Part shown: in pieces, positions 7,273-55,500 of the stretch | How positions within the stretch are numbered: position 1 is the first letter of the stretch | How the letters are laid out: every line of letters begins with the position of its first letter | From: a virus | Taxonomy: Duplodnaviria; Caudoviricetes | IMG/VR virus record: IMGVR_UViG_3300044615_000557 | Location: 1 to 56,805 of that record | Length of the DNA: 56,805 bases | Strand: one strand, 5' to 3' | Notes under the pieces: generated by a model | What the model was told of the DNA's origin: nothing | What the model saw: the letters and a program-made list of their open reading frames with translations, nothing else | Databases searched by the model: none | Made by a program: the position numbers and the translations under genes

Positions 7273-8343
7273 ATGAAGGGATTTGACACCATAAGAGACG
7301 AGGGTCGCAAGGCTCATGAGGACACGCTGAACGAGGAGATGTCCACCCTACTGAACGAGGCACTTGTCGTGCTCGGCAAGGGAAAGAAGTATGGACAGGC
7401 AGTCATCCTCGCTGGTGGTGCCGGTTCGGGCAAGGGCTTCGCTGTAACCCATCTGCTTCAGGGAGAGTTGTACAAGGTCATCAATCCCGATGACTTCAAG
7501 GATCTCCTGCTCAAGGTGCGTGACAAGAAGACGCAAGTCGGGAGCGAGCGTCTCGGTCAAGTCCTCAAGGATATCTCCGATCTTGACCTGAAGAATCCAA
7601 AGGACACATCCACGCTCCACATGCTCGTCAAGGGCATGAATCTCATGCAGAAGAAGATCACCTACCTGTTCGCAGGAAAGGGTGGTGCCATGCAAATGCC
7701 GAATGTCATGTTTGATGTGACCATGAAAGATCCCGAGACGCTGTTTGGTGACGCGAGCGAGGAGGGGATCCTCACCCAACTCAAGAACGCCGGATATAAA
7801 AGAGATGACATTCACATCGTCTGGATCCTCACCGACTACAAGATCGCGATGCAGCAGAATCTCAGCCGCGATCGTGTGGTGAACTCCCACATCGTTCTCC
7901 AGTCACATGCAGGTGCAGCCAAGACCATGCAAGAGGTGGTGTTTAAGAACTACGGCAAGATGGGCATCAACGGAGATGTGGTAGTCATCATCGGTGGCTC
8001 CAAGGGTGGCAGCATCACTTATACCAAGGGATCGGAAATTGAGGATAAGTATGGCAAGGTCCATACCCTTGACAGAGACCTCAAGGTTCCCGTGTTCGCG
8101 AAGATCAACTACTTCCGCATCAAGAACGCGGGTTCGCCACAGATGAGTCGCAATGGTCTTGCAGCCGTACAGAACTACATTGGCAAATTGGCACCCCCGC
8201 CCAAACTTGACTTTGAGAATGATCCGGAGGGGGCGAGCAAGTTCGTGAAGAGAAAAGAAAAGCAAGCGGTTATGGCACTAGCCAGATCGCCAAAGGGCAT
8301 TGATCCCAAGGTAGCCAGAAACTTGGGTTATCGTGGACTATAA
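7273..8343 (+). CDS. P-loop kinase (zeta-toxin/AAA_33-like)
   Basis: VILAGGAGSGKG Walker A, INPDD, and N-x-x-R-x-R-V lid (NLSRDRVV). Confidence 0.7.
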   Translation: MKGFDTIRDEGRKAHEDTLNEEMSTLLNEALVVLGKGKKYGQAVILAGGAGSGKGFAVTHLLQGELYKVINPDDFKDLLLKVRDKKTQVGSERLGQVLKDISDLDLKNPKDTSTLHMLVKGMNLMQKKITYLFAGKGGAMQMPNVMFDVTMKDPETLFGDASEEGILTQLKNAGYKRDDIHIVWILTDYKIAMQQNLSRDRVVNSHIVLQSHAGAAKTMQEVVFKNYGKMGINGDVVVIIGGSKGGSITYTKGSEIEDKYGKVHTLDRDLKVPVFAKINYFRIKNAGSPQMSRNGLAAVQNYIGKLAPPPKLDFENDPEGASKFVKRKEKQAVMALARSPKGIDPKVARNLGYRGL

Positions 8344-8380: not shown

Positions 8381-8935
8381 ATGCGTAACCACGGATCCCA
8401 ACTCAACCGCTCGTTCATGATCCACAACATCCACCTTGTGAGGCGGATCCAGCAGTTGATGGACTACATGGTCATGGTGGCCATGGACTTGGAGAACATT
8501 GAGAAGGGTCTGGAGAGCGAGGCGGTCCGAGAACTCGCCACCAAGGAACTCTCCCGCGTCCGCAAGGACATTGAGACCCTCGTCCTAAGCACCCGTGGCG
8601 GTCCTCCGCCGAGCAAGGAGGAACTGACGGCCTATGCCACCGGTTTCATGCCCGTGCCTCCAAAGGCTCCCAAGCCCAAGCCAGCAAAGAAGCCCGTGGA
8701 GGAGATTGAGGAGGAGATCAAGGAAGTCCTGAACTCCATCTTCGGGGGCATGCTTGACAAGTTGGAGTCCGATAAGCAGGAGGAGCAAGAGCAGGGAGTC
8801 GGAGACGACCCCGACGCGGAGAAGCACCTCTGGCGTTCCCCCTACTGGTCGGGGAAGCGGGAGCAGTCCAATAACTCCTCCGACGAGGACATGCCGGATC
8901 CGGAAGATCTGGAAGATTACCTCAAGGGGCTTTGA
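8381..8935 (+). CDS. Hypothetical protein
   Basis: 184 aa, acidic C-terminus. Confidence 0.7.
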   Translation: MRNHGSQLNRSFMIHNIHLVRRIQQLMDYMVMVAMDLENIEKGLESEAVRELATKELSRVRKDIETLVLSTRGGPPPSKEELTAYATGFMPVPPKAPKPKPAKKPVEEIEEEIKEVLNSIFGGMLDKLESDKQEEQEQGVGDDPDAEKHLWRSPYWSGKREQSNNSSDEDMPDPEDLEDYLKGL

Positions 8936-8960
8936 CAAGAGGACGATGGTGTGGTATGCT
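8932..8960 (+). promoter_or_regulatory. sigma70-type promoter
   Basis: TTGACA-17-TATGCT with extended TG; ATG 7 nt later. Confidence 0.65.
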
Positions 8961-8967
8961 TACCGGT

Positions 8968-9309
8968 ATGAACACAGCAATCAACAGCCACCTCAACATC
9001 GCCGAGATCGAAGCCAAGCGTAGCCTCCTCCTGAAAGCCCTGCACCTCTCCATCTGCAAGGTGGTCTTCACCAAGACGGACGGGACGGAGCGTACCATGC
9101 TCTGCACGCTGGACGAGCAGTTCCTCCCCTCCCGCGAGGACTCCGTCGCCCTGACGGGCACGAAGACGGGCAAGCCCCGTCACTCGCCGGATGTCCTGTA
9201 TGTCTGGGATGTGGAGAAGAACGACTGGCGTGCCTTCCGCGTGGACAGGGTCAAGGAATGGAACATTGAACACCAGCGGAACGACGAGAACGACCTGCTG
9301 GGCGACTGA
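8968..9309 (+). CDS. WYL_2/SH3 beta-barrel fold protein
   Basis: VVFTKTDGTERTMLCTL ... VWDVEKNDWRAFRVD motif. Confidence 0.7.
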   Translation: MNTAINSHLNIAEIEAKRSLLLKALHLSICKVVFTKTDGTERTMLCTLDEQFLPSREDSVALTGTKTGKPRHSPDVLYVWDVEKNDWRAFRVDRVKEWNIEHQRNDENDLLGD

Positions 9310-9319
9310 CCCCCGCCAT

Positions 9320-9392
9320 ATCCCCGTAACTCAGAGGATAGAGTAGCGGTTTTCTAAACCGCCTGTCGCAGGTTCGAGTCCTGCCGGGGATG
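9320..9392 (+). tRNA. tRNA-Arg(UCU)
   Basis: Acceptor ATCCCCG/CGGGGAT; anticodon arm GCGGT-TT TCT AA-ACCGC; T-loop TTCGAGT. Confidence 0.92.
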
Positions 9393-9394
9393 CT

Positions 9395-9465
9395 GCCCCT
9401 ATAGTATAACGGCATTACACTTGATTTGTAATCATGAGAACTCAGTTCGATTCTGAGTAGGGGCT
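9395..9465 (+). tRNA. tRNA-Thr(UGU)
   Basis: Acceptor GCCCCTA/TAGGGGC; anticodon loop TT TGT AA; T arm CTCAG-TTCGATT-CTGAG. Confidence 0.85.
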
Positions 9466-9468
9466 TTC

Positions 9469-9722
9469 GCTCTCGTAACTCAGTTGGTAGAGTAGCGGAC
9501 TTTCAATGGAACTCTTGCACAGGAATGTGCAAGCGAATCTCCCCAAAATCGGCGAACCCTTCGCTGGCAACGCCGAGCCAAGCCCGTAAGGGAAGGTGTA
9601 GAGACTTGACGAGGAGCATCCAGACCGGATGAAGGCAAAGTCCAGACCACGAACCGAAAGGGCGGCGAAAGCCGAAGTGGTAGGTAATCCGTAAGTCGTG
9701 GGTTCAAGTCCCACCGAGAGCA
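9469..9722 (+). tRNA. tRNA-Lys(UUU), split by a group I intron (exons 9469-9503 and 9685-9722)
   Basis: Joining the exons gives GCGGA-CT TTT AA-TCCGT; acceptor GCTCTCG/CGAGAGC; A73. Confidence 0.85.
9504..9684 (+). ncRNA. Group I self-splicing intron (181 nt, no ORF)
   Basis: P1 with U.G at the 5' splice site, P2 hairpin CTTGCAC/GTGCAAG, P/Q (AAATCGGCGAA / CAACGCCGAG), R/S (GTAGAGACTT / AAGGCAAAGTCC), GAAA-capped P9, terminal G. Confidence 0.85.
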
Positions 9723-9726
9723 TTGC

Positions 9727-9799
9727 GGTCCCATCGTCTAGCAGGCTAGGACACCTCCCTTTCACGGAGACAACAGGGGTTCAAATCCCCTTGGGATCA
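9727..9799 (+). tRNA. tRNA-Glu(UUC)
   Basis: Acceptor GGTCCCA/TGGGATC; anticodon loop CT TTC AC; T arm AGGGG-TTCAAAT-CCCCT. Confidence 0.9.
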
Positions 9800-9806
9800 C
9801 TAAATA
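9800..9806 (+). promoter_or_regulatory. Late promoter CTAAATA
   Basis: 5 nt before ATG 9812. Confidence 0.6.
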
Positions 9807-9811
9807 AGAGC

Positions 9812-10363
9812 ATGAGATCGTTTGTACAACACCTGACCGAGACAAGTCACGGCAACCCGCCCAAGGGCATCATCTATTGCGACATGGATGGGGTGCTGGT
9901 TGACATCATCGGTGGCATCTGCAAGATGGACAAGATGACTCGTTGCACCGAGAAGTCTTTTGACCGGTACTTGGAGAACAACAAGGCCAAGTTTGACCGC
10001 GAGCATCCGAACCTCTTCCAGAAGTTGCCGTGGATGAAGGATGGCAAGCGTCTCTGGAAGTACATCAGCCAGTTCGGACCCCACATCCTCTCTGCCCACA
10101 CCAGCACATGGCAACCGACTTCAAAGGAAGACAAGATGGTGTGGATCAAGAAGAACCTGAACCCCTTGCCAACCCGCACGCACATTCTCCTGCGGGCACA
10201 GAAGCAGAACTACGCGGTACAGAAGGACGGCACTCCTAACATCCTGATTGATGATCTACCACAGAACATCAGTGAATGGAAGGCAAAGGGCGGAATCGGC
10301 ATCATTCATCGCAATGCCGAGACGACCATCGGAAGGCTGAAGCAACTCGGTTATATCATGTGA
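9812..10363 (+). CDS. HAD-family 5'(3')-deoxyribonucleotidase (NT5C-like)
   Basis: IYCDMDGVLVD motif I and ILIDD motif IV; N-terminus MRSFVQHLTE. Confidence 0.85.
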   Translation: MRSFVQHLTETSHGNPPKGIIYCDMDGVLVDIIGGICKMDKMTRCTEKSFDRYLENNKAKFDREHPNLFQKLPWMKDGKRLWKYISQFGPHILSAHTSTWQPTSKEDKMVWIKKNLNPLPTRTHILLRAQKQNYAVQKDGTPNILIDDLPQNISEWKAKGGIGIIHRNAETTIGRLKQLGYIM

Positions 10364-10364
10364 A

Positions 10365-10445
10365 GCCGTAGTGGTGGAATGGCATACACGGGGGTTTCAA
10401 AAACCCCTGCCGCAAGGCATGCAGGTTCGAGTCCTGTCTACGGTA
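10365..10445 (+). tRNA. tRNA-Leu(CAA)
   Basis: Acceptor GCCGTAG/CTACGGT; anticodon arm GGGGT-TT CAA AA-ACCCC; variable arm TGCC-GCAA-GGCA. Confidence 0.9.
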
Positions 10446-10462
10446 CTTGTGAAAGGCAAAGA

Positions 10463-10609
10463 ATGAACGAAGGACATCACGGAGCAGGCAAGGGGGACAC
10501 CTATCGCAAGGTGGACTTGGAGCAATATGGCAAGAACTACGATGCCATCTTCCACAAGAAACCCAAGAGGAAGCCTGTCAGGACGAAGAAGAAAGCGAGT
10601 AAACCATGA
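10463..10609 (+). CDS. Small conserved phage protein
   Basis: GKGDTYRKVD..YGKNYDAIF motif; GAAAGG RBS. Confidence 0.6.
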   Translation: MNEGHHGAGKGDTYRKVDLEQYGKNYDAIFHKKPKRKPVRTKKKASKP

Positions 10610-10848
10610 GTCACCCCTACACGCCCGGACGGGCATACGAACTAGGATACGGAGACCGCATGCAAGGCAAGTGCATGGACGGAAAGGTCATGCAGTCGGA
10701 AGACAAGGACATCTTCAAGGAAGAGTATGTGCGTGGGTGGAACGATGCCAACGCACGGGTCTTTGATGAGTCCCGAAAGAAGATGGAAAGCAAGCCGATG
10801 CCCGACGGCTGGTCCAACGGGTCCGGCAAGTTCACCCTCAAGGGCTAA
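10606..10848 (+). CDS. Hypothetical protein
   Basis: 80 aa, ATGA-coupled. Confidence 0.6.
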   Translation: MSHPYTPGRAYELGYGDRMQGKCMDGKVMQSEDKDIFKEEYVRGWNDANARVFDESRKKMESKPMPDGWSNGSGKFTLKG

Positions 10849-10851
10849 ATA
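10845..10851 (+). promoter_or_regulatory. Late promoter CTAAATA
   Basis: Overlaps upstream stop; GGAGG RBS and ATG 10869 follow. Confidence 0.6.
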
Positions 10852-10868
10852 TGAATCCGGAGGCACAC

Positions 10869-11234
10869 ATGACACTGATCACCACCCTACTCACGCTTCA
10901 ATCGCAACTTCGCATCTTCCACTGGCAGACGAAGTCATACGCAGAGCATCAGGCTCTCGGCGGTCTTTACGGCGACCTTGACCCTCTCGTTGACGAGTTC
11001 GTGGAGGTGTTCTCCGGTCGTTACGGGGTTCCTGTCGCCAAGAACCAGTACTCCCTGACCTTCGGCAACTACAAGGACAATGCCGCATGCGTGGAGTTCA
11101 TTGACAAGACCATCCAGTACATGATGAAAGATGTTCCGGCGATGCTGAAGCCGGAGGACACCGACCTCCTCAACCTTCGGGACGAGATAGTCGGGGCATT
11201 GAACAAGACGAAGTACCTGCTCCGTCTCAAGTGA
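10869..11234 (+). CDS. Ferritin/Dps-like four-helix protein (DUF5856-like)
   Basis: HWQTKSYAEHQALG.LY..LD.LVDEFVE motif resembling the Dps ferroxidase helix. Confidence 0.75.
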   Translation: MTLITTLLTLQSQLRIFHWQTKSYAEHQALGGLYGDLDPLVDEFVEVFSGRYGVPVAKNQYSLTFGNYKDNAACVEFIDKTIQYMMKDVPAMLKPEDTDLLNLRDEIVGALNKTKYLLRLK

Positions 11235-11238
11235 ACAA

Positions 11239-11580
11239 GGGGTCGTATAGGTATCGAATGCATGCAAACTGATGAGTGATGCGCTACGGGGAACCATGTT
11301 CGCCCCGCAACAAGACATGGAAACTAGAACTGCCAACAAGCAGCCCTACCGTCTCGCTCTCGCAGCCTGACCTCCGACTACCTGACTCCTCTAGGGTAGA
11401 AAGAGCAAACAGAGGATTGGACCTCGCGGAACGGAACGCCAACGAGGTCCGAGAACCAAAGACTCCGAACATGACCCGCTCAGTTGCCGTCGGCGGCGGG
11501 TCTTGACAAGCGACGGATATTAGCGTAGAATGCACCACAGTAAACATGACATCACGGGGGTTCGATTCCCCCCGACTCCA
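11239..11580 (+). ncRNA. ssrA: tmRNA; tag peptide (A)ANKQPYRLALAA at 11332-11370
   Basis: Acceptor GGGGTCG/CGACTCC-A with G3.U70, T arm GGGGG-TTCGATT-CCCCC, pk1-like pairing CCATGT/ACATGG, tag ORF ending ALAA-stop. Confidence 0.9.
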
Positions 11581-11596
11581 TTAGAAAGATCTCGCC

Positions 11597-12217
11597 ATGA
11601 ACACCCCCAAGGGAACCAAGCCACCTCCGAACAAGGATGTATTCGTGGTGTCCGACACTCACTTCGGACATGCGAATATCTGCAAGTTCAATTCCAAGGG
11701 GGTGAAACTCCGTCCATGGGACCGGATAGAGGATCATGACGAGGCTCTGGTCGCCAACTGGAACGCCGTGGTCAAGCCCACCGACAAGGTGTATCACCTC
11801 GGCGATGTCGCCATCGCGAAGAAGTCTCTTGACATCCTCTCGCGGCTGAACGGCGACAAGATCCTCATCCGTGGGAACCATGACATCTTTGACCTGAAGG
11901 ACTACGCCAAGCACTTCCGCGACATCCGTGCGTTCCATGTGCTGAACGGGTGCGTCTTCTCGCACGCGCCCATCCATGCATCATGTCTGGAGAAGTTCGG
12001 ATGTAATGTCCACGGGCACACGCACGCGAAGCATATCCAACGGGTCGCCGATATCGGTGGTCTGGAGAACGACCCGTCGTACCTGAATGTCTGCGTGGAG
12101 CACACCGGCTTCGCTCCCATCCCTCTTGACGAGGTGTTCGCTCGGGTGCTGAAGCAGGGAGGTAGGGTGGGGTTCCTTGACAAGCGACGGGAAGAGGTGT
12201 ATGATTGGGCTGGTTGA
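11597..12217 (+). CDS. Calcineurin-like metallophosphoesterase
   Basis: SDTHFGH, HLGD, GNHD, HGHTH motifs. Confidence 0.9.
   Translation: MNTPKGTKPPPNKDVFVVSDTHFGHANICKFNSKGVKLRPWDRIEDHDEALVANWNAVVKPTDKVYHLGDVAIAKKSLDILSRLNGDKILIRGNHDIFDLKDYAKHFRDIRAFHVLNGCVFSHAPIHASCLEKFGCNVHGHTHAKHIQRVADIGGLENDPSYLNVCVEHTGFAPIPLDEVFARVLKQGGRVGFLDKRREEVYDWAG
12177..12205 (+). promoter_or_regulatory. sigma70-type promoter for tRNA-Gly/Asn
   Basis: TTGACA-17-TATGAT. Confidence 0.65.
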
Positions 12218-12223
12218 AACCAT

Positions 12224-12295
12224 GCGGGTGTAACTCAGCGGTAGAGTTCTTGCCTTCCAAGCAAGGTGTCGAGGGTTCGAATCCCTTCGCCCGCT
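12224..12295 (+). tRNA. tRNA-Gly(UCC)
   Basis: Acceptor GCGGGTG/CGCCCGC; anticodon arm CTTGC-CT TCC AA-GCAAG. Confidence 0.92.
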
Positions 12296-12300
12296 TTCGG

Positions 12301-12372
12301 TGGTCTGTAGCACAACGGTAGTGCGTCGTCCTGTTAAGACGGTGGTTACAGGTTCAAATCCTGTCAGACCAG
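12301..12372 (+). tRNA. tRNA-Asn(GUU)
   Basis: Acceptor TGGTCTG/CAGACCA; anticodon arm TCGTC-CT GTT AA-GACGG; G73. Confidence 0.9.
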
Positions 12373-15204: not shown

Positions 15205-15501
15205 ATGATTCATGAGTTCCGCAACCCGATTCCCGTCATCGTTGAGGGAGACAAAGAGGGCTATGCCATCTATGTCCGCGACAGCGGGACATTTGAGAAC
15301 GACATCTGGTGTGTGACTTTGTGTGATGGCGGCATCGTTCGTCACTACAGGTCCGACCAGATATCCATATACCAGAACAAGACCTTTGACATCCAGAAAC
15401 CAGAGACCAAATCAGAAGAAGAGGACGAGCCGTTCGTACCCTTCAAGCCATACAAGAACACCAGTGACCAGAAAGGTCCAACAGGAGACACTACACAATG
15501 A
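15205..15501 (+). CDS. Hypothetical protein
   Basis: IHEFRNPIPV...GYAIYV..SGTFENDIWCV.L motif. Confidence 0.65.
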   Translation: MIHEFRNPIPVIVEGDKEGYAIYVRDSGTFENDIWCVTLCDGGIVRHYRSDQISIYQNKTFDIQKPETKSEEEDEPFVPFKPYKNTSDQKGPTGDTTQ

Positions 15502-16196
15502 GCAGCACAGCGACCAAGATCAAGATTTCGCAGGAGACCCTGAACATCCTCAAGAACTTCGCGGGGATCAACAGCAATCTCCATGTGAAGCAGGGCAACA
15601 CCATCAGCACCATCTCGCCGTCCTCCACCATCCTTGCGGAGGCCACGGTAGCGGAGACCTTTGACACGGAGTTCGGCATCTGGGACATGTCCCAGTTCCT
15701 CTCCACCATCAGCCTCTTCAAGAACCCCGAGTTTGAGTTTGACGAGAACGGCAAGTTCGTGAACATCGGCTCGGAGGGATCCAAGGCATCGGTCAAGTAC
15801 TTCTTCTCCGAGCCTTCGCTCCTGTCCGCCCCGCCCGACAAGAAGATCAGCATGCCCAAGGTCGCGGTCCAGTTCCGCCTGACCGAGGACAAGATCGCGT
15901 CGGTCCTCAAGGCGGCTTCTGTCCTACAGGCTCCCGACTTCTGCGTTGAGTCGTGCGACGAGGGCATCTGCATCCGCGTGTGCGACAAGAAGAACGCATC
16001 GGGTCACAGTTGGAGTCTCGTCGTTGACGAGGAGCAGCCGGACATGTCGTTCCGGTTCTGGCTCAAGGTGGAGAACATCAAGTTGTTCCCCGGTGACTAC
16101 GATGTGTCGTTCGCCGAGAAGAAGGTCGTGAAGTTCGTCGGTCCCGTCACCTACTGGATCGCCCTTGAGTCCGACAGCACCATCAGCAAGGACTGA
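15498..16196 (+). CDS. gp45: DNA polymerase sliding clamp
   Basis: TLNILKNFAGIN, FGIWD..QFLS, LFPGDYDV, YWIALE motifs; synteny with gp44. Confidence 0.92.
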   Translation: MSSTATKIKISQETLNILKNFAGINSNLHVKQGNTISTISPSSTILAEATVAETFDTEFGIWDMSQFLSTISLFKNPEFEFDENGKFVNIGSEGSKASVKYFFSEPSLLSAPPDKKISMPKVAVQFRLTEDKIASVLKAASVLQAPDFCVESCDEGICIRVCDKKNASGHSWSLVVDEEQPDMSFRFWLKVENIKLFPGDYDVSFAEKKVVKFVGPVTYWIALESDSTISKD

Positions 16197-18269: not shown

Positions 18270-18695
18270 GTGAATCAAATAGTAGACACCCTTGTGGAGG
18301 TCACCTTACCTTCACCCGACAACTTTTTGAAGGTGAAGGAGACGCTGACCCGCATCGGGATCTCCTCCAAGACCGAACGCAAGTTGTACCAGTCCTGCCA
18401 CATCCTCCACAAGAAGGGCAAGTACTACATTGTCCACTTCAAGGAACTCTTCATGCTGGATGGATTGGAATCCGACTTCGCGGAGTCGGACAAGGCACGA
18501 CGGAACACCATCGCCAACCTGCTTGAGCAGTGGGGGCTGGTCAAGATCGTCAACCCTGCCATGACCAAGGAACCGGCATGTCCGATAAGTCACTTCAAGA
18601 TTCTTCCCTTTAGCCAAAAGAATGACTGGGAACTGATTCCGAAGTACCGCATCGGAGTTCGCAAGAGACCCCTTGACGGCAGCGACGAAACCTGA
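18270..18695 (+). CDS. regA: Translational repressor RegA
   Basis: FLKVKETLTRIGI, LYQSCHILHKKGKYYIVHFKELF.LDG motifs; GTG start. Confidence 0.95.
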   Translation: MNQIVDTLVEVTLPSPDNFLKVKETLTRIGISSKTERKLYQSCHILHKKGKYYIVHFKELFMLDGLESDFAESDKARRNTIANLLEQWGLVKIVNPAMTKEPACPISHFKILPFSQKNDWELIPKYRIGVRKRPLDGSDET

Positions 18696-20004: not shown

Positions 20005-20972
20005 ATGACCGATACACCATCCTACAGGGAGACAGCCGTGAGGTTCTCAAGACCCTGCCGGACCGCTCCGTCCACACCTGCATCACCTCGCCGCCCTACT
20101 TCGGCTTGCGTGACTATGGAGTTGACGGGCAGATCGGTCTTGAGGAGACCCCTGATGGGTATGTAAGTGAGATGGTTGAGTTGTTCCGTGAGGTCCGTCG
20201 CGTCCTGCGTGATGATGGGACGCTCTGGCTGAACCTCGGCGATTCCTACGCAGGAAGCGGCAGGGGTCGTAACGCGGACGGGACGGCATGGGTGAAGCAG
20301 GGGGACGGGTCCAAGCAGGCGAGCAACAGGGGAGCCATCGCTGGCACTCTGGTTGATGTTGACTGCGGAGACCTGAAGCCCAAAGACCTCATCGGCATCC
20401 CGTGGCGGGTTGCGTTTGCTCTACAGGCTGATGGTTGGTATCTCCGTCAGGACATCATCTGGCACAAGCCGAACCCGATGCCTGAGAGCGTGACCGACCG
20501 ATGCACCAAGGCGCACGAATACATCTTCCTCTTCTCCAAGTCGCCACGATACTTCTTTGACCATGAGGCGATCAAGGAAATGGCTACTACTGCACCGGCA
20601 CTTCGGGACAAGCATGGAGAAAAGTATCAAGCAGATTATCCTACAGGAGACAGGTTTTCCTCGGGAGAGAGGGTGTGGGGTTCTGATGGCAAGCGTAACA
20701 AGCGTTCGGTCTGGACCGTGACCACCAAGCCGTTCAAGGGTGCCCACTTCGCCACTTTCCCCGAAGACCTTATCGTTCCCTGTGTCCTTGCGGGGTGTCC
20801 TAAAGATGGAACGGTCCTTGACCCTTTCAACGGAGCGGCAACGACGGGCGTGGTTGCACTGAAGAACCAAAGACGCTATATTGGGATTGAGTTGAACCCC
20901 GAATACATCAAGTTGTCCGAGGAACGCATCAGACAGCAAGTGCCGGAAACCCTGACCGAACTATTCACATGA
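20001..20972 (+). CDS. Site-specific DNA methyltransferase (N4-C/N6-A, beta class)
   Basis: TSPPY catalytic motif precedes the DPFNGAATT SAM motif; HFATFP. Confidence 0.92.
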   Translation: MNDRYTILQGDSREVLKTLPDRSVHTCITSPPYFGLRDYGVDGQIGLEETPDGYVSEMVELFREVRRVLRDDGTLWLNLGDSYAGSGRGRNADGTAWVKQGDGSKQASNRGAIAGTLVDVDCGDLKPKDLIGIPWRVAFALQADGWYLRQDIIWHKPNPMPESVTDRCTKAHEYIFLFSKSPRYFFDHEAIKEMATTAPALRDKHGEKYQADYPTGDRFSSGERVWGSDGKRNKRSVWTVTTKPFKGAHFATFPEDLIVPCVLAGCPKDGTVLDPFNGAATTGVVALKNQRRYIGIELNPEYIKLSEERIRQQVPETLTELFT

Positions 20973-23506
20973 AACCATTCTACACCGATGTAACGATGAA
21001 GGGGAGTCGTATCCTCCATCGTGGCTACGACGCAAGCGGACGGCGTGTCCATGAATCGGTGAACTTCCGACCGACGCTCTATGTCCCGACGAAGAAGCCG
21101 AAGCCCGATTGCTGGACCACTATTGACGGCATCAAGGTTGAGCCGGTGGACTTTGAGAACTCCTATGAAGCCCATCTCTTCGCGGAGAAGTACAAGGGCG
21201 TGGAGGGGTTCCGCATCTACGGGCAGATTGATCCGCAGTACCAGTTCATCGCACAGACCTACGGCAGCGAGGGCGAACTGGAGTACGACCCGTCGCTCAT
21301 TCGTGTCGCATACATTGACATTGAGTGCGAGAGCGAGGACGGGTTCCCGAGCATGGATGACCCCGAGGAACGCATCAACGCCATCACCGTCCACATGAAG
21401 GGCAAGACCCATGTGCTGGCGTTGGGGCAGTTCCATTCGGACGAGGTGAAGTATGAGTGCTTCACCGACGAGGCGAAGTTGCTCTCCGCGTTCTTGGACC
21501 TGTGGGAGGAACTGGACCCCGACATCCTAACCGGATGGAATGTGGTGTTCTTTGATGTCCCGTACCTCTACCGCCGGATGGAGCGCGTTCTGGGTCGCAA
21601 GGTGGCACAGAGGATGTCCCCATGGCAGGATGTCCGAGAACGCAAGGGAGCGGTCAACTCGCTAGGACAGGCGAGCATCGCCTACTACATCAACGGCATC
21701 GCCATCCTTGACTACATTGACCTCTACAAGAAGTTCACCTTCACGAACCAAGAGTCATACAAGTTGGAGTTCATCGCCTCGCAGGAACTGGGCGAGGGCA
21801 AGATGTCCTACGATGACTACTCCAGCATCACCGAGTTCTACCGCAAGGACTTCCAGCGGTTCGTGGAGTACAACATCCGCGATGTCCTGCTGGTGGTGAA
21901 GTTGGAGGACAAGTTGCGGCTGCTGGAACTGGCTCACGGGTTGGCCTACTCCGCACGGGGGAACTTCGGCGATGTGTTCACGCAGGTCCGCATGTGGGAC
22001 AGCATCATCTACAACTACCTGCGGACTAAGCATGTAACCATCCCGCCCAAGGAGTCGGCGGACAAGGATGACAAGTTTGAGGGTGCGTATGTAAAGGAGC
22101 CGCAGGTCGGGAGCCACGACTGGGTCGCATCGTTTGACCTTGACAGCCTCTACCCCCACCTCATCATGCAGTACAACCTCAGCCCCGAGACGCTGGTCAA
22201 GGAGAGGGTCAAGGGCATCTCCGTTGATGACCTAATCTCCTGCAAGAACGAGACCCTTGAGGGGGAACTGCGAAAGGCAAAGGAACGGAACCTGTCGGTC
22301 GCCGCCAACGGCACCATGTATCGCAGGGACATCCGCGGCTTCCTGCCCGAACTCATGGACACCATGTACGACCAGCGAAAGGTGTTCAAGAAGAAGATGC
22401 TTGAGGTCAAGGGCTGGCTCAAGAACAACCCCAATGCCACGCCTGAGCAGGTGGAGCAGGCGAAGAAGGACATTGCCAAATACAACAACTTCCAGATGGT
22501 CCGCAAGGTCCAACTGAACTCCGCGTTCGGTGCGTTGGGCAACCAGTATTGCCGCTACTACAACCTTGACATGGCGGAAGCCATCACGGTGTCGGGTCAG
22601 TTCAGCATCCGGTGGGTGGAAGACAGATTGAACGCTCTCCTGAGTAAAGTGTGCGGGGTCACTGAGGATTTTGTAATCGCCTCCGACACCGACTCCGTGT
22701 ATCTCAAGATGGGATGCCTTGTGGACAAGATGTTGGGAACCAAGCCCACCAAGGAGACCATCCTGTTCCTTGACAAGTGCTGCACGGATGTTATACTCCC
22801 CAAAATCAACCGGTGGTATGCCGACCTCGCCGAGAGGATGAACGCATACGACAACAAGATGTCCATGAAGCGGGAGTGCATCTCGGCCAAGGGCATCTGG
22901 ACAGCGAAGAAGAGATACATGCTCGCGGTGCATCTCGGCGAGGACAATGTCTATGTCAAGGAACCTGACCTGAAGATCATGGGCATTGAGACGGCACGAT
23001 CGTCCACCCCGCTCATCGTAAGGAAGAAGTTGAAGGAAGCAATTCGCATCATCATGACGCAGGACGAGCCGACCCTCCGTGGCTTCGTGGCGACCTTCCG
23101 CGAGGAGTTCTCCCACCTGCCCGTGGAGAGCGTGGCTTTCCCCCGCGGCTGCTCCTACATGGACAAGTATCACGACTCCGCGAGCATCTACAAGAAGGCG
23201 ACACCCATCGCCATCAAGGGTGCTCTCATCTACAACCATTGGATCAAGGCGAAGTCCCTGCTCAAGTCGTTCCAGCCCGTGCGTGACGGCGAGAAGGTGA
23301 AGTTCGTCTACCTGAAGGAGCCGAACCCCGTCCGTCAGAGGGTCATCTCTTTCCCCTACAAGTTGCCGGAGGAGTTCGGCTTGCTTCCGCACATTGACTA
23401 CGACACCCAGTTTGAGAAGGCGTTCATTGACCCTCTCAAGAACATTCTGGACACCATCGGATGGAAGGTTGAGGAGACCAGCAGCCTTGACGGATTGTTC
23501 GCCTGA
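20969..23506 (+). CDS. gp43: Family B DNA polymerase
   Basis: DIE ExoI, SFDLDSLYPH, KVQLNSAFG, SDTDS, KKRY motifs. Confidence 0.97.
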   Translation: MKPFYTDVTMKGSRILHRGYDASGRRVHESVNFRPTLYVPTKKPKPDCWTTIDGIKVEPVDFENSYEAHLFAEKYKGVEGFRIYGQIDPQYQFIAQTYGSEGELEYDPSLIRVAYIDIECESEDGFPSMDDPEERINAITVHMKGKTHVLALGQFHSDEVKYECFTDEAKLLSAFLDLWEELDPDILTGWNVVFFDVPYLYRRMERVLGRKVAQRMSPWQDVRERKGAVNSLGQASIAYYINGIAILDYIDLYKKFTFTNQESYKLEFIASQELGEGKMSYDDYSSITEFYRKDFQRFVEYNIRDVLLVVKLEDKLRLLELAHGLAYSARGNFGDVFTQVRMWDSIIYNYLRTKHVTIPPKESADKDDKFEGAYVKEPQVGSHDWVASFDLDSLYPHLIMQYNLSPETLVKERVKGISVDDLISCKNETLEGELRKAKERNLSVAANGTMYRRDIRGFLPELMDTMYDQRKVFKKKMLEVKGWLKNNPNATPEQVEQAKKDIAKYNNFQMVRKVQLNSAFGALGNQYCRYYNLDMAEAITVSGQFSIRWVEDRLNALLSKVCGVTEDFVIASDTDSVYLKMGCLVDKMLGTKPTKETILFLDKCCTDVILPKINRWYADLAERMNAYDNKMSMKRECISAKGIWTAKKRYMLAVHLGEDNVYVKEPDLKIMGIETARSSTPLIVRKKLKEAIRIIMTQDEPTLRGFVATFREEFSHLPVESVAFPRGCSYMDKYHDSASIYKKATPIAIKGALIYNHWIKAKSLLKSFQPVRDGEKVKFVYLKEPNPVRQRVISFPYKLPEEFGLLPHIDYDTQFEKAFIDPLKNILDTIGWKVEETSSLDGLFA

Positions 23507-24348: not shown

Positions 24349-25410
24349 ATGAGTCTGATCCAGAAACTGAAGAAGAACTCCACCATCAAGGACACGGAGA
24401 TCCTCTTCTCATCCAAGTTCTTCAACAAGAAGGACATGATCTCAACATCGGTTCCTGCCATCAATGTCGCCCTCTCTGGGCGGCTTGACGGAGGCTTCGT
24501 CCCCGGCATCACCATGTGGGCGGGACCGAGCAAGCACTTCAAGAGCCTGTTCTCCCTGCTCATGGCGAAGGCGTACCTTGACAAGTACGAGGATGCCGTG
24601 ATGCTGTTCTACGACTCGGAGTTTGGCACGCCCATCAACTACTTTGAGACCTTCGGCATTGACATGAAGCGGGTCATCCATACCCCCGTCAAGGATGTGG
24701 AGGAACTCAAGTTTGACATCATGAACCAGTTGAAGGACATTGAGCGTGGCGAGCGGGTCATGATCATCATTGACTCCATCGGCAACCTCGCCTCCAAGAA
24801 GGAAGTGGAGGACGCACTTGACCAGAAGGCGGTCGCCGACATGACCCGTGCGAAGCAGATCAAGTCGCTGTTCCGCATGGTCACGCCGCACCTGACCCTC
24901 AAGGACATCCCGATGGTCGTGGTGAACCACACCTACAAGACCATGGAGTTGTACGCCAAGGATGTGGTCGGCGGCGGCACCGGCTCGTACTACTCTGCCG
25001 ACACCATCTTCATCCTCGGTCGCCAGCAGGAGAAGGACGGCACGGAGGTCACGGGCTACAACTTCATCATCAATGTGGAGAAGTCCCGCTATGTGAAGGA
25101 GCGTTCCAAGATCCCGATCTCGGTCTCGTTTGACGATGGCTTGAGCCGGTGGAGCGGTCTGCTTGACATGGCGATTGAGTCGGGCCATGTGGTGAAGCCG
25201 TCCAACGGATGGTACTCCCGCGTGGACTCCAAGACCGGCGAGGTGGAGGACAAGAAGTTCCGCATGAATGACACCGATAGCAAGGACTTCTGGATGCCCA
25301 TCCTGACCGATGCCTCGTTCGGCGAGTTCGTCAAGAGCAAGTACTCGGTGGGCAACATGGAGATTCTGGGAGCAGACGAGGATCCAGACGAGGAGGACAC
25401 CAATGCCTGA
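24349..25410 (+). CDS. uvsX: RecA-like recombinase UvsX
   Basis: AGPSKHFKS, FYDSEFG, DSIGNLASKKE, VGGGTG motifs. Confidence 0.95.
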   Translation: MSLIQKLKKNSTIKDTEILFSSKFFNKKDMISTSVPAINVALSGRLDGGFVPGITMWAGPSKHFKSLFSLLMAKAYLDKYEDAVMLFYDSEFGTPINYFETFGIDMKRVIHTPVKDVEELKFDIMNQLKDIERGERVMIIIDSIGNLASKKEVEDALDQKAVADMTRAKQIKSLFRMVTPHLTLKDIPMVVVNHTYKTMELYAKDVVGGGTGSYYSADTIFILGRQQEKDGTEVTGYNFIINVEKSRYVKERSKIPISVSFDDGLSRWSGLLDMAIESGHVVKPSNGWYSRVDSKTGEVEDKKFRMNDTDSKDFWMPILTDASFGEFVKSKYSVGNMEILGADEDPDEEDTNA

Positions 25411-39939: not shown

Positions 39940-40030
39940 GCACGCCTAGCATCTGGGTATGCAAACCGACTTATAAACGGTCTTAGCGGCAGATTACCGC
40001 GAGAGGTGGGTTCGATTCCCACGGCGTGTA
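39940..40030 (+). tRNA. tRNA-Ile(UAU) with long variable arm
   Basis: Acceptor GCACGCC/GGCGTGT-A; D stem GCAT/ATGC; anticodon loop CT TAT AA; V-arm GCGG...CCGC; T arm GTGGG-TTCGATT-CCCAC. Confidence 0.75.
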
Positions 40031-49527: not shown

Positions 49528-50583
49528 ATGTCCGGATACATTGACACCAAGTTCATCAACATGCTGTCTCCACGCCTTGAGAGGTTCAAGTGGAAGAAGC
49601 AGGGTCTTGCCGTCTGCCGTTGTCCCGTCTGCGGCGACAGCGAGAAGGTCAAGAGCAAGACTCGGTTTTACATCTACGAGCGGGGTGGCAATCACTTCTG
49701 CAAGTGCCACAACTGCGGGTTCAGTTCCTTGTTCGGGACGCTACTGCGGAAGATGGACGAGGCACTCTACCGCCAGTATCGGATGGAGACCCTCAAGGAA
49801 GGCTCCTCCGTCCTCACGCCCACGCACGCGCGTACGCACGCACCCGCCCCCGCACGCACGCGGGAGAAGCCCAAGGACGAACTCCTGACACTGCTGCCAT
49901 CGCTGGACACGCTGCCGAAGGACCACCCTGCCGTCCGTTGGGCGGAGTCCAGAAGGTTGCCTGTCGCAGCCATGTCGCTGCTCTACTACTCGGACAACTA
50001 CGGCGAGTGGGCAACGAGAGTTGACCCCGATGTGAAGGCGGGAGATGATCCACGAATCGTCATACCCATCATCAACAAGGACGGCAAACTGACCGGCTCA
50101 CAAGGACGGATTCTGCCGAAACTGGCCGTCTCAGAAGGACAGAAGCCGAACCGGTCTGTCATCCGCTACCTGACCATCAAGGCAGATAAGGACGGACCGA
50201 AGCAGTGGTATGGCATGGACCGATGTGACCCCAAGCAGCCGGTGTTTGTGGTGGAAGGCCCGCTGGACAGCCTGTTCCTTCCCAACTGCGTTGCGATGGT
50301 TGGCCTGTCGGATGCCTTGAGCATCCCACCCGAACTGAAGGACTCCAAACTCATCTATGCCCTTGACAATGAGCCTCGCAACGCCGAGGTGGTGGAGTCA
50401 ATGGAGGAACTCCTTGACGCGGGACATCATGTGTGCGTGTGGTCGGACAAGATGCGTGGCATGAAGGACATCAACGACATGGTGCTGTCCGGCATGTCTG
50501 CCGCGACCATCGCAAGGGAGATAGAAAGAAACTCGCATGTCGGACTTTCCGGCATGGTCGCTCTCAAGAGATGGTCTAAATAG
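49528..50583 (+). CDS. gp61: DNA primase
   Basis: RCPVCGDS..K.R, CHNCG Zn finger; VEGPLDS, DNEPRN, KDIND Toprim motifs. Confidence 0.95.
   Translation: MSGYIDTKFINMLSPRLERFKWKKQGLAVCRCPVCGDSEKVKSKTRFYIYERGGNHFCKCHNCGFSSLFGTLLRKMDEALYRQYRMETLKEGSSVLTPTHARTHAPAPARTREKPKDELLTLLPSLDTLPKDHPAVRWAESRRLPVAAMSLLYYSDNYGEWATRVDPDVKAGDDPRIVIPIINKDGKLTGSQGRILPKLAVSEGQKPNRSVIRYLTIKADKDGPKQWYGMDRCDPKQPVFVVEGPLDSLFLPNCVAMVGLSDALSIPPELKDSKLIYALDNEPRNAEVVESMEELLDAGHHVCVWSDKMRGMKDINDMVLSGMSAATIAREIERNSHVGLSGMVALKRWSK
50576..50582 (+). promoter_or_regulatory. Late promoter CTAAATA
   Basis: Upstream of GGAGG RBS and ATG 50599. Confidence 0.6.
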
Positions 50584-51775: not shown

Positions 51776-52573
51776 ATGATTACACAAGTCAAGGATGTCC
51801 CCGTGCTTGACGCGGGGCATGTTCAGTATGTCACACACATGGGCGATGACCTGATGGTGGTCAACGCAGCCCGTGTGTCTTTCGCCAAGGAATCGGAATT
51901 TGACTACGACATCAAGGAAGAGATTGATGTTGATGGGCGATCCGTAACCGAGCACAAACACAATTTCAGGTTGAAGGAAAGGGACAAGAAACTCATTTCT
52001 TATCTCGCGAAGCACAACCACTGGACTCCGTTCGCCCATCCCCAGATCACGCTTCGCATCAAGGCACCGATCTCCATCCGCACGCAACTCTTCAAGCACA
52101 AGGTCGGCTTCGTGGAGAACGAGGTGAGCCGTCGTTATGTGAAGGACGAGCCGGAGTATTACATGCCGAACTGGAGATCGGCACCGACCGACGGGGCGAA
52201 GCAGGGCAGTTCGGGCTTCATGGACAAGACCGACCATCCCGTGAACAGGATGCTGAGGGATGCCGACTATCGGCAGGTCTGTAACATGGCCATCATCCGA
52301 TACAACACCATGATTGATGAGGGTGTCGCCCCCGAGCAGGCACGCTTCATCCTGCCGCAGGGAATGTATACCGAGTGGTGGTGGACGGGAAGCCTCTCCG
52401 CCTACGCCCGCGTCTACAGGCAGCGTTCGGACCCGCATGCCCAGTGGGAAGTGCGTCAGTATGCCGATGCGATTTCCGCCATCATTGAGCCGCTTTTTCC
52501 GGTGTCGTGGAAAGTTCTCTGTGGTTCCGAGATTGAGGTCAGCACTCCTGAGCCTGCCCTAAATAAGTCGTAA
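51776..52573 (+). CDS. thyX: FAD-dependent thymidylate synthase
   Basis: VNAARVSF, HWTPF.H, KHK.GF.ENEVSRRY, PEQAR.ILP, HAQWE motifs. Confidence 0.95.
   Translation: MITQVKDVPVLDAGHVQYVTHMGDDLMVVNAARVSFAKESEFDYDIKEEIDVDGRSVTEHKHNFRLKERDKKLISYLAKHNHWTPFAHPQITLRIKAPISIRTQLFKHKVGFVENEVSRRYVKDEPEYYMPNWRSAPTDGAKQGSSGFMDKTDHPVNRMLRDADYRQVCNMAIIRYNTMIDEGVAPEQARFILPQGMYTEWWWTGSLSAYARVYRQRSDPHAQWEVRQYADAISAIIEPLFPVSWKVLCGSEIEVSTPEPALNKS
52559..52565 (+). promoter_or_regulatory. Late promoter CTAAATA
   Basis: Upstream of the collagen-like gene. Confidence 0.55.
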
Positions 52574-52597: not shown

Positions 52598-55500
52598 ATG
52601 GCACATAGGTTTAACGAGTTCATCAATGCCCCCGATCCCAATGTTGAGTTCGCCCGCCTGAGCGAGGGTGTTCCCCATGGGACAAATATCATTCTTGTCC
52701 GACCCCTCATGGGACATGAGCCGGGCGATGTCTTCACATGCGCTCCCGCGAGCGCGTGCGCGGGCGCGAAGTGCTACACCTACAGGGGCATCGGGGAAGC
52801 ATACCTTCTTGACCCGAACGGCGAGCCGATCGTACTCAAGGGCGGACCGAACATCCTTGACGAGTCGTTCGTTCTTGAGAGCGATAGACCGAAACCCGAA
52901 CCCGTGGTTCAACGCAACGAGGTCATGCGACAGCCGGAACCCAAGCCCATCGTGGAAGCCCGTGTGACTCAGGGTCCAAGGGGAGAGAGGGGCGAGGACG
53001 GCATCCCCGGCATCCGTGGTCCCAAGGGTCCGAAGGGTGACAAGGGAGACGCAGGAGAGCGTGGACTACAGGGACCGCAGGGTGAACGGGGAGAGCAGGG
53101 ACCGCAGGGAGAGAAGGGTGATCGTGGACTCCAAGGACCGCCGGGAATACGCGGGGAAAGGGGCGAGCGTGGAGAGAAAGGCGAAGCCGGAGAGAAGGGG
53201 GAAAAGGGAGAGGCGGGACCACAGGGCATCCAAGGCGAGCGGGGACTTCAAGGACTCGCAGGGGAAAAGGGAGAGAAGGGTGAGAAAGGAGATTCCGGTC
53301 CACAGGGATCGCGGGGTGAAGCGGGTGCCCGAGGAGAAAGAGGAGAGAAGGGCGACAAGGGAGATGCCGGTGAAAGGGGAGAAGCCGGTCCCGCGGGACC
53401 ACAAGGGTCCGTTGGACCTGCGGGCAATGTGGGTCCGCAGGGCAAGGCAGGTCCGCGAGGAGCAAAGGGCGAGAAGGGCGAAAGAGGATCAGCGGGTCCG
53501 CAAGGAGAGCAGGGATCGGTAGGACCGGCTGGACCCGAAGGACCGCAGGGACCGAAGGGTGAGACCGGCGACAGCGGCATCGTCTCCGCCCAGTATCCCC
53601 TGAAGTATGACAAGGACAAAAAGCGTCTTTCCATTGACCTATCAAAGATAAAGCCGACAGGTGCGGCTGGCGGTCCCATTCTCTATGACGGCGGCGGCGG
53701 TCTCGGCGAGGCGTTCAAGTTCGTCTCGGTGTCGGGTCAATCGGGACTGACGGCGGTCCAGTATGACAAGGAGACGCTGACCTTCGTCGCGGGTTCCAAT
53801 GTCACTCTCACGACAAATCCCGACGCAAACTCAATCACCATCGCGAGTTCCGGTGGTGGTGGAGGAGGAGGACCGGGGTATTGGGGTTCATTCTGGTCAA
53901 CCGAGGACCAGATTGCCGCGACCGCCAACTACGAATACCTGATCACATACAACAACACGGATCCGGACTCGTCCGGTGTCGGCATCACCAACGGAAGCCA
54001 AGTCAAGTTCACGAACGCGGGCGTATACAGCATCATCTACTCCGTCCAGTTTGTCAATACCAGCAATCAGATTACAGATGCTAACATTTGGCTGAAGAAA
54101 AACGGAACCAATTTTCCAGACAGTGACAGCAAATGGAGCGTCGTATCAAGACATGGTAGTATTAATGGACATGCCATCGGAAGCGTCAACTATGTCCTGA
54201 AACTGAACGCAGGTGACTACCTTGAGTTGGCATGGCAAACTACAGACCCAAGCCTTTCGATTGAAGCACTTCCGGCAGAAGGTGTGGCACCGGCAATCCC
54301 CTCAATCATCCTGACGGCAACGCAGGTCGCAAACACTCTTGTGGGTGCGACGGGCAACACGGGACCGACAGGTGCTGCCGGTCCCACGGGCGCAAGAGGA
54401 ACGACCGGCAACGGAGTGACTGGATTTGCCGTCGTTGACAACTACCTCCGATACTGGTACATGGGTCCGACCGGAGCGACACTCGGCGAGTACCAGAACG
54501 CGGGGTATGTTGGTGGTGGTGGAGGCGGTGGAGGGATTGGACCCACAGGACCGACAGGACCGCAAGGCAACACGGGACCGACGGGACCACAAGGTCCGCA
54601 GGGAGACCCCGGTGTCGGCATTCAAGGAAACACGGGCAACACAGGACCAACAGGACCGCAGGGACCGATTGGTCCTACGGGTAACACCGGAGATACGGGA
54701 CCGCAAGGCAACACAGGATCAACTGGTAACACCGGAGATACGGGACCACAAGGACCGACAGGTAACACGGGACCGACAGGACCGCAGGGCAACACCGGAC
54801 CGACGGGACCGATGGGTTCCTTCACCGGCGACTATGTCTCGTCCATCAACGGCTTGACGGGAGCGATAACAGGAGTCGTTCGCTTCACCTCGTCCCTGAC
54901 GGCACCGACAGGGGTGAGCGTAGGACACAAGTGGTTTGACGAGGCATCCGGCACCGAGTTCACCTACATCTATGATGGCGACACATATCAGTGGGTGGAC
55001 ATCTCAGGTGGTGGAGGGAACGGAGGAACACAATCCACGGATCCGCTCTATCTGCTTGACCCCACGAAAGTCCAGTGGATTCATAGCATCTTCCCCGCAG
55101 GCACCGCAAACGGAATTCTTCCCTTCGCAGTAAGCACCAGCGGAACATATGTTGGCGGGAACATCGGAAACAACTTCTATAACACCGATGCCGCGAGTAT
55201 CAAGAGATACGGACAGGCGAGAATAACACAAACAGCAGCAAACTCCGTGACTGGAGCATCATATTTTCTGGGAACTCCGATGGCGAACATAAATCTGATG
55301 CTCGGAGTGACAGGAACTACATGTTCATTCCTCACGGGAACAAGAATGTCACACCAATCCACCGGATCGGCTCCATACCTTCTCAGAGCCGGTTTCATGG
55401 ACAATACATCCGGAGGAGGAGTGGTAGATGGTGCTTGGTTTGAATATACCCACACGGTCAACGGAGGAAGATGGTACTGCTATGCCAACAGAGGCAATGA

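Follow-up and report, generated by a model that had tools for sequence, protein, structure and literature searches.

The window, by which we mean the whole stretch of DNA analysed here (56,805 nt), is a 56.8-kb IMG/VR virus record with a completeness rating of about one-third, and its PHROGs gene set (Table 1) points to a T4-like phage. Default ARAGORN and Rfam place a tRNA cluster at 9320–12372, with genes for tRNA-Arg(UCU), Thr(UGU), Glu(UUC), Leu(CAA), Gly(UCC) and Asn(GUU) together with a tmRNA, and neither default ARAGORN nor Rfam at its cut-off makes a call at 9466–9726. Within this interval lie the two halves of a tRNA, the first (9469–9503) ending in ...GCGGACTTT and the second (9685–9722) starting with TAATCCGT, and the spacing of 181 nt between them (9504–9684) that had been reported in a first-pass annotation was confirmed in the sequence. 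ARAGORN with introns allowed returned a single tRNA spanning exactly 9469–9722; the SeC identity and the intron placement assigned in that mode were wrong. The spliced form, for which the same annotation had proposed an ARAGORN check, was read by ARAGORN as a tRNA-Lys(ttt) of 73 nt when 9503 was joined to 9685, in agreement with the proposed insertion between nucleotides 35 and 36 of tRNA-Lys(UUU). This product aligned gap-free with the uninterrupted annotated tRNA-Lys of Synechococcus phage S-H9-2 with 56 of 73 positions identical, as against only 34–50 identical positions with seven other tRNAs. Judged by its cloverleaf, its UUU anticodon and its likeness to known tRNA-Lys, the predicted product is a tRNA-Lys(UUU). 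Phage S-H9-2 is a cultured cyanomyovirus, and its tRNA-Lys likewise precedes a tRNA-Glu.

The insert had been described as minimal and ORF-less. At 181 nt this description holds, the antisense ORFs 9442–9765 and 9480–9734 having no Pfam family, and no endonuclease gene was found among the ORFs neighbouring the intron. A scan of 59 ORFs of the window found no nuclease and no tRNA-repair gene.

Table 1. The interrupted tRNA-Lys gene, the elements of its intron and the surrounding genes, in window positions
Feature	Positions	Strand	Evidence or detail
tRNA-Thr(UGU), upstream neighbour	9395–9465	+	ARAGORN/Rfam
5' exon, tRNA-Lys(UUU)	9469–9503	+	acceptor 5' strand, D arm, anticodon stem 5' strand, loop nt 32–35 (U34 and U35 last); cloverleaf stems covary, n = 18
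Group I intron, 181 nt, no ORF	9504–9684	+	RF00028 match and structure counts
P1, loop AAU	9500–9504 with 9508–9512	+	U9503·G9509 wobble at 5' splice site
P2 hairpin, 8 bp, GGAA tetraloop	9514–9533	+	two-sided changes at 8/8 pairs
P3 5' strand	9539–9544	+	partner 9611–9616
P4-P5-P6 domain	9549–9596	+	pair counts and Rfam alignment
P4	9549–9554/9571–9576	+	1/6 pairs compensatory
P5, minimal (2 bp)	9557–9558/9566–9567	+	
P6	9578–9579/9595–9596	+	
P6a, GUAA loop	9583–9585/9590–9592	+	3/3 pairs compensatory
P7 5' strand	9601–9607	+	G9601, bulged A9602, 9603–9607; pseudoknot with P3
P3 3' strand	9611–9616	+	partner 9539–9544
P8 hairpin, 4 bp, 5-nt loop	9618–9630	+	2/4 pairs compensatory, 100% paired
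P7 3' strand	9638–9643	+	pairs with G9601 and 9603–9607
P9 three-way element	9646–9681	+	closing stem 9646–9650/9677–9681
Two GAAA-capped hairpins inside P9	9654–9661 and 9663–9674	+	
Terminal (omega) G, last intron nucleotide	9684	+	read in window sequence
3' exon	9685–9722	+	U36, A37, A38, anticodon stem 3' strand, variable loop, T arm, acceptor 3' strand, discriminator A
tRNA-Glu(UUC), downstream neighbour	9727–9800	+	Lys-Glu order common to Synechococcus phage S-H9-2
DNA polymerase processivity factor	15498–16193		PHROGs
Translation repressor	18270–18692		PHROGs
DNA polymerase	20969–23503		PHROGs
UvsX-like recombinase	24349–25407		PHROGs
Primase	49528–50580		PHROGs
Thymidylate synthase	51776–52570		PHROGs
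Tail fibre protein	52598–55771		PHROGs

Intron structure, covariation and the splice junction

The Rfam model RF00028 (Intron_gpI) matches 9492–9666 over model positions 1–253 with 37.9 bits (E = 2.2e-8 on a 321-nt stretch and 9.2e-10 on the whole record). The covariance-model check that had been suggested therefore came out in two parts, in that the curated threshold was not reached and a clear full-length match was found below it; because the gathering score of 50 bits lies above 37.9 bits, a run at that cut-off is blank at this position and does not list the window intron. When ten relatives' loci (described below) were searched in the same way, five gave an Intron_gpI match at E ≤ 0.001 (31.7–47.2 bits) and the other five none at that E-value, with 0/10 reaching 50 bits.

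The structural hallmarks listed by the first-pass annotation were recovered in the sequence: the U·G pair at the 5' splice site, the two P7 six-mers, which are correct if A9602 is treated as bulged, a GAAA-capped P9, in which we found two such hairpins, and the terminal G, which is read in the window sequence itself. In P1 the exon end pairs with an internal guide, and across 18 distinct sequences its wobble pair is U·G in 18/18, its other inner pairs being U–A in 18/18, U–A in 16 with U·G in 2, and C–G in 16 with U·G in 2; the outermost pair is C–G in 13/18 and unpaired in 5/18, the window copy having a C9500/C9512 mismatch there. The outer two pairs of P2 hold in few sequences only. P3 has one C/A mismatch in the window copy, with 98.1% of cells paired and compensatory changes at 3/6 pairs, and P7, with the same number of compensatory pairs, is paired in 100% of cells; by analogy with the family, P7 would be the guanosine-binding helix. 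The helices P3, P4, P6a, P7 and P8 are each paired in 97–100% of cells, and a P10 with the 3' exon, as read from the 18-sequence alignment, would have no more than 2 bp and lacks conservation. The minimum free energy fold of the precursor is mildly better than that of shuffled sequences (z = -2.39), as is expected of a pseudoknotted ribozyme. The site in the anticodon loop, the absence of P5abc and a core sequence like that of known tRNA introns make this, by location and core likeness, an IC3-like intron of the Azoarcus or tRNA-Leu type as far as sequence comparison can place it; IC3 introns are described as being without P5(a-d) (PMC11835236).

To collect relatives we used short words from the window. 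An 18-nt core word was found in 40 viral stretches, and a 3' junction word (9668–9689, from the last part of P9 through the terminal G to the fifth base of the 3' exon) in 6 viral and 22 metagenome stretches. With the window, these 28 stretches gave 29 rows, 26 of them complete precursors and three cut by a contig end, and the spliced form was tRNA-Lys(UUU) in 22 of the 29 under ARAGORN with a strict stem rule. One further row (L020) was tRNA-Lys(UUU) under a looser stem rule and L240 is identical to it, and L244 and L254 were included on the stem rule alone. The set comprises 18 distinct sequences, window included, with introns of 181–205 nt at the same site in diverged tRNA-Lys genes, and at least five clearly different exon backgrounds, in which both acceptor and anticodon stems differ. 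The shortest introns are those of the window and of a near-twin, L039, which differs from the window by one exon base that turns a C–G pair into U·G. Several copies belong to tRNA arrays of phage style, of which three include a tmRNA, and no second tRNA-Lys was found beside the interrupted gene in the arrays seen; the 31 ORFs on six relatives' contigs mostly have no PHROGs family.

We counted pairs for the P1–P9 and cloverleaf structure on a plain MAFFT alignment (A1) of the 18 sequences. Standard pairs occupy 96.7% of 1324 cells, compared with 29.7–45.3% when partners were slid by 1–3 columns, a comparison that favours the structure because it was drawn from the window's own sequence. Two-sided changes occur at 34/74 pairs (5–11 in the slid versions), and the observed value was reached by 0/500 shuffles for four of five measures and by 105/500 for the fifth (further pair types). 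Compensatory changes affect 6/7 pairs of the acceptor stem, the anticodon stem (27–31 with 39–43) is 96.7% paired, and no variation is seen in the joining segments of the core. The search and extraction rules themselves fixed the 18 bases at the 3' end of the intron, the CTTT ahead of the 5' cut and the first five bases of the 3' exon, and the lack of variation in P9b, in the 3' strand of P9, at U35 and at the terminal G among relatives is therefore no evidence; the partner of the splice-site wobble was free to vary under these rules and is G in 18/18. From the covariation of the exon stems it follows that selection acts on the tRNA, which must therefore be spliced. The split tRNA and the group I core are both under selection, and with the full-length RF00028 match the covarying core bears out the earlier assignment to group I.

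Eighty candidate junctions were spliced in silico, the criteria being a U as the last base of the 5' exon, a G as the last intron base, a 73-nt tRNA and a 7-nt loop, and only 9503|9685, which gives Lys(UUU), and 9502|9684, which gives Thr(UGU), passed them all. The latter, with both cuts one base to the left, had been named as the outcome that would overturn the tRNA-Lys reading. However, U9502 (U34) pairs with A9510 and not with a G, this pair being U–A in 16/18, and the position of 9683 is an A in 13/18 relatives, whose introns would be cut one base earlier without a terminal G. A Thr(UGU) gene moreover already adjoins the locus, and the S-H9-2 tRNA-Lys alignment (56/73) and the intron-less DNA forms described below both fit the 9503|9685 join. 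We give the tRNA-Thr reading almost no credence.

Related introns in other tRNAs and an intron-less allele

Introns were mapped among the 40 viral stretches with the core word. Lys(UUU) introns follow nucleotide 35 in L019, L020 and L039 and nucleotide 34 in L021; Ile(UAU) introns follow nucleotide 34 in L007 and L024; and on other viral contigs Leu(UAA) introns follow nucleotide 34 or 33 and CAU-tRNA introns nucleotide 36. One stretch, L010, has an intron in tRNA-Asn(GUU) after nucleotide 35, read by eye, with a guide that complements CUGU as against CUUU for Lys. In every mapped intron the guide matches the loop bases before the cut. Some core-word stretches have the intron inside a protein gene or carry an ORF, and in three (L025, L034 and L037) we saw no other intron features by eye. 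A tree was built from the 31 introns whose boundaries could be set, leaving out ORF-bearing and boundary-less loci. The Asn intron nests inside the CAU-type introns (100/100), and the Lys introns share one cluster, without branch resolution, with Leu(UAA) introns and with CAU introns after U33. The Lys.4 introns require three changes on the tree, of which the starred branches force only one, so that their monophyly is neither supported nor excluded. The tree, though weak, suggests that such introns change their tRNA host.

Wider searches used a loose pattern of 6 and 11 fixed bases with a gap of 55–85. In a genome collection it gave at least 120 stretches; among the matches listed almost all were chance on inspection, only L146 and L149 (Opitutia MAGs) were tRNA introns, each in a CAU tRNA after U33, and none was a tRNA-Lys intron, a result with no bearing on occurrence in bacteria. 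The same pattern gave 78 stretches on viral contigs, of which 6 were true. The 3' junction word, with one mismatch allowed, was also sought in two samples of 401 bacterial genomes each, both narrow for a narrow pattern. It was not found in the sample from the phylum to which a Pleurocapsa MAG belongs, and its one match in the sample from a Patescibacteria MAG's phylum was by chance and had no tRNA. Among GenBank phages the intron alone weakly matches four records, none of them a tRNA-Lys and none a close relative. In GenBank, an unannotated 595-kb 'uncultured phage' record has an intron containing an HNH-like ORF, followed by the 3' exon of a tRNA-Leu(UAA).

The 24 listed runs with window DNA are all lake-water DNA metagenomes, with no RNA run among them. 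We compared contigs from four of these lake DNA runs with the window at 85% likeness, and in two of the four, contigs track the window to 9503 and then resume in the 3' exon. A 223-nt contig consists of 9352–9503 with three differences (some of the tRNA-Arg, the whole tRNA-Thr, the spacer and the 5' exon), nine other letters in place of 9685–9693, and 62 nt from 9694 onwards that reach the tRNA-Glu. The nine replaced letters alter both ends of the anticodon stem 3' strand, and we suspect that the three upstream differences include matching changes in this stem. We read this contig as a close relative with the order Thr-Lys-Glu and a putatively uninterrupted tRNA-Lys, on which account the intron appears dispensable. 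Two further contigs join 9503 straight to 9685, with flanks of 29–30 nt, short enough that they may stem from unrelated tRNA-Lys genes.

Relation to known introns

The closest known counterpart in architecture is the tRNA-Ile(CAU) intron of Azoarcus, which like that of the window is small, ORF-less and inserted in the anticodon loop, and shares with it the P1-P2, P3-P8 and P4-P6 domains, a P9, GNRA-capped P2 and P9 and the absence of P5abc. The two differ in the site (Lys(UUU) after nucleotide 35 as against Ile(CAU) after nucleotide 36) and in compactness, the window intron being 24 nt shorter at 181 nt, with a 2-bp P5 and a 4-bp P8. Unlike the Azoarcus intron, that of the window is phage-encoded and has a three-way P9 with two GAAA hairpins, and its 3' end is of a 'GUGGUARG' type, not that of the CAU-tRNA introns. 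At 205 nt the Azoarcus intron is called compact, and it self-splices in the full pre-tRNA (PMC13168695). The tRNA-Leu(UAA) intron is likewise an IC3 intron of the anticodon loop, and the Leu(UAA) introns on two viral contigs (L036 and L026) have the P9 and the 3'-end sequence type of the Lys intron and fall in the same tree cluster; it differs in its position after nucleotide 34 (or 33), in its guide and in its cell and plastid hosts, in which it has long been studied. The plastid trnK(UUU) gene is interrupted by a large group II intron that encodes a maturase; this intron is also in a tRNA-Lys(UUU), but it belongs to another class of ribozyme with another mechanism.

The list of classical tRNA hosts in the first-pass annotation corresponds to the four classical types of the Williams preprint (10.1101/2020.01.27.920355), which raises the bacterial tRNA and site classes from 4 to 21 and states that the Rfam model underperforms on them. 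Like our analysis, that survey has a U at -1, a G at omega and regular tRNA exons and accepts Rfam matches well below the cut-off; it covers bacterial and archaeal assemblies, not phages, and its main text names only the Leu, Arg, fMet and Ile2 classes, with no Lys and no phage. In its naming the window intron would be Lys.4Ug, and it may be among the 17 new classes there. Introns of T4 and other phages share with this one the setting of a T4-like phage genome, but they lie in protein genes, often with homing endonuclease ORFs, whereas this one lies in a tRNA gene and has no ORF. A 2014 review by Hausner and colleagues states, in its treatment of phages, that all phage introns to date were in protein-coding genes despite the many phage tRNA genes (PMC3984707), and the relevant passages of PMC7431792, PMC6293099, PMC8557907 and 10.1101/2021.08.26.457843 concern endonuclease ORFs or protein-gene introns. 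We found no report of phage tRNA introns or of tRNA-Lys group I introns in the passages of the literature searched.

Proposed splicing and role of the intron

On the pattern of the family, loop nucleotides 32–35 would pair with the guide just inside the intron to form P1, with U35 in the U·G wobble, and a free guanosine bound at P7 would attack after U35. The terminal G9684 would then move into that site, and the 3' OH freed on U35 would attack after it, releasing the intron and ligating the exons to a normal tRNA-Lys of 73 nt. Pairing of the anticodon stem is possible across the intron and would keep both exons together, and the GGAA tetraloop of P2 and the two GAAA loops in P9 would dock into helical receptors, as such loops do in the Azoarcus intron. 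Judged from its sequence and that of its relatives, the intron is real and almost certainly functional as a group I intron. Given a matching guide, an intron of this kind could follow any U in an anticodon loop, and it would persist by splicing well. Our reading, which we hold with high confidence, is that 9469–9722 is a phage tRNA-Lys(UUU) gene split at 35/36 by a 181-nt ORF-less IC3-like group I intron that would be self-splicing and is most likely a neutral passenger. The intron-less relative and analogy suggest that it is phenotypically neutral, selfish or inherited, and most likely has no job. With no ORF and no neighbouring endonuclease gene, any mobility would, speculatively, come about through recombination in co-infected cells or reverse splicing.

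Two other readings have to be weighed against this. If the insert were a decayed relic that no longer splices and the gene a tRNA pseudogene, one would look to the Rfam score below the threshold, to the mismatches of the window copy in P1 (C/C) and P3 (C/A) and to the very short P5 and P8. A dead gene, however, would not keep the covariation of its exon stems, the nucleotides of the core junctions are invariant and the helices of the core covary, and the only change in the near-twin L039 is a single exon base that exchanges C–G for U·G; we therefore regard decay as highly unlikely. A benefit to the phage, for which the intron would be retained because it meters tRNA-Lys, couples its supply to guanosine nucleotides or holds a nuclease-safe precursor with its loop buried in P1, is in our view quite unlikely. 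Consistent with such a role, the intron is retained at this one site in tRNA-Lys genes of at least five clearly different backgrounds among the 18 sequences, and the interrupted gene is the only tRNA-Lys found in the arrays seen; in the literature tRNA-Lys is also described as a target of phage defence, and phage tRNAs as able to rescue infection. The first-pass annotation had offered a related idea, that splicing times the supply of the tRNA or shields it from anticodon nucleases, and we found no support for it. The anticodon loop of the spliced tRNA is ordinary, so that nothing is gained once it is mature; the near-identical relative has the gene without the intron, which speaks mildly against a function; and related introns in Leu(UAA), CAU, Ile(UAU) and Asn(GUU) tRNAs fit the use of any U in the loop better than a role specific to Lys. 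Nor was a nuclease or tRNA-repair gene found among the 59 window ORFs.

A bolder combination of these ideas would have a single lineage of small group I introns living unrecognised in phage tRNA arrays, moving from one anticodon loop to another (Lys, Asn, Ile, Leu and CAU) by re-tuning a few bases of its guide, and kept in tRNA-Lys(UUU) as a nuclease-proof, P1-locked reserve of precursor, supplying tRNA-Lys while host defences cut the mature pool; we consider it very unlikely.

The generalization that phage introns lie only in protein genes, as the 2014 review worded it for its time (PMC3984707), is corrected by the intron of a T4-like phage and by those of at least 17 further distinct sequences from the environment, and the tRNA group I introns known from bacteria are extended to phages. 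The locus also marks a blind spot of standard annotation, default ARAGORN and Rfam at its cut-off having both missed the gene, and where interrupted tRNAs are missed in this way phage tRNA repertoires, and the readings of codon usage and counter-defence based on them, are undercounted. Provided that it splices well, the intron is a candidate for a minimal natural group I ribozyme that could serve structural studies and the engineering of circular RNA. The related introns, with their varied positions in the loop and matching guides, amount to a natural experiment on how such an intron changes its target.

The tRNA cluster of the window and its surroundings

Upstream of the tRNA cluster lie directly two ORFs (7273-8340 and 8932-9306), one of which matches the Pfam Zeta_toxin P-loop family only at borderline level (22.3 bits, exactly the cut-off value) and is assigned to PHROG 5268; the other carries a WYL_2 domain (52.7 bits). 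Within the cluster, the tag peptide of the tmRNA is given by ARAGORN as ANKQPYRLALAA. A tmRNA is also found close to the interrupted tRNA-Lys gene in three related stretches (L019, L039 and L096).

In each of two lake-water metagenome runs, a contig has 8 other letters in place of window positions 9393-9473, a replacement that includes the entire tRNA-Thr gene. Because the flanking sides at 9392-9474 are only 20 nt, the replacement may be a cross-match between tRNAs rather than a true variant. Elsewhere in the window, the tRNA-Ile(UAU) call is doubtful; the predicted molecule has a long extra arm and a D stem of 3 bp, its anticodon stem contains a mismatch, and the Rfam tRNA model at its gathering threshold made no call at this position.

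Features of the window and of compared stretches
Feature	Location	Remarks
tmRNA	window 11239-11583	phage-encoded, within tRNA cluster; Rfam 86.3 bits; ARAGORN
tRNA-Ile(UAU), 91 nt	window 39940-40030	ARAGORN call
Group I intron in tRNA-Asn(GUU)	L010 (viral contig), ~7.6-7.9 kb, minus strand
L259	LR756511.1 408623-409873	unannotated GenBank record of an 'uncultured phage', 595 kb
L260	Pelagibacter phage HTVC120P 19054-20371	capsid gene region
L261	Rhizobium phage RHph_N3_13 36990-38230	ribonucleotide reductase gene region

Group I-like stretches in GenBank phages

In LR756511.1, a tRNA-Leu(UAA) 3' exon follows a group I intron, inside which an HNH-like ORF is encoded. The capsid gene of Pelagibacter phage HTVC120P is annotated as two CDSs (locus positions 380-562 and 754 onward); between them, at 601-718, we found a group I core-like stretch, and the gene probably holds an unannotated intron. 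A ribonucleotide reductase gene of Rhizobium phage RHph_N3_13 carries separate annotations for an N-terminal and a C-terminal partial; between the two lie a group I core-like stretch and an inserted ORF, which the record names an Srd-like protein.

Splice sites and tRNA hosts of the introns

The interrupted tRNA-Lys genes of two compared stretches, L244 and L254, are otherwise near-identical, but the T-run at the 5' splice site is one T longer in one of them than in the other. Since the length of this run differs and P1 (the helix of the 5' exon end and the intron guide sequence) offers several candidates for the U.G pair, the precise position of the 5' cut is ambiguous in both.

Among the viral contigs, L021 has a second type of intron in tRNA-Lys(UUU), inserted after nucleotide 34 instead of 35, and two others (L007 and L024) carry an intron after nucleotide 34 of tRNA-Ile(UAU), an unusual host. 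The tRNA-Asn(GUU) intron of L010 follows nucleotide 35, the same loop position as that of the tRNA-Lys intron of the window, and its guide sequence matches CUGU. At the 3' end the L010 intron resembles the type found in CAU-tRNA introns, and in the tree of 31 group I introns it is nested among these (100/100), which suggests that it changed its tRNA host.
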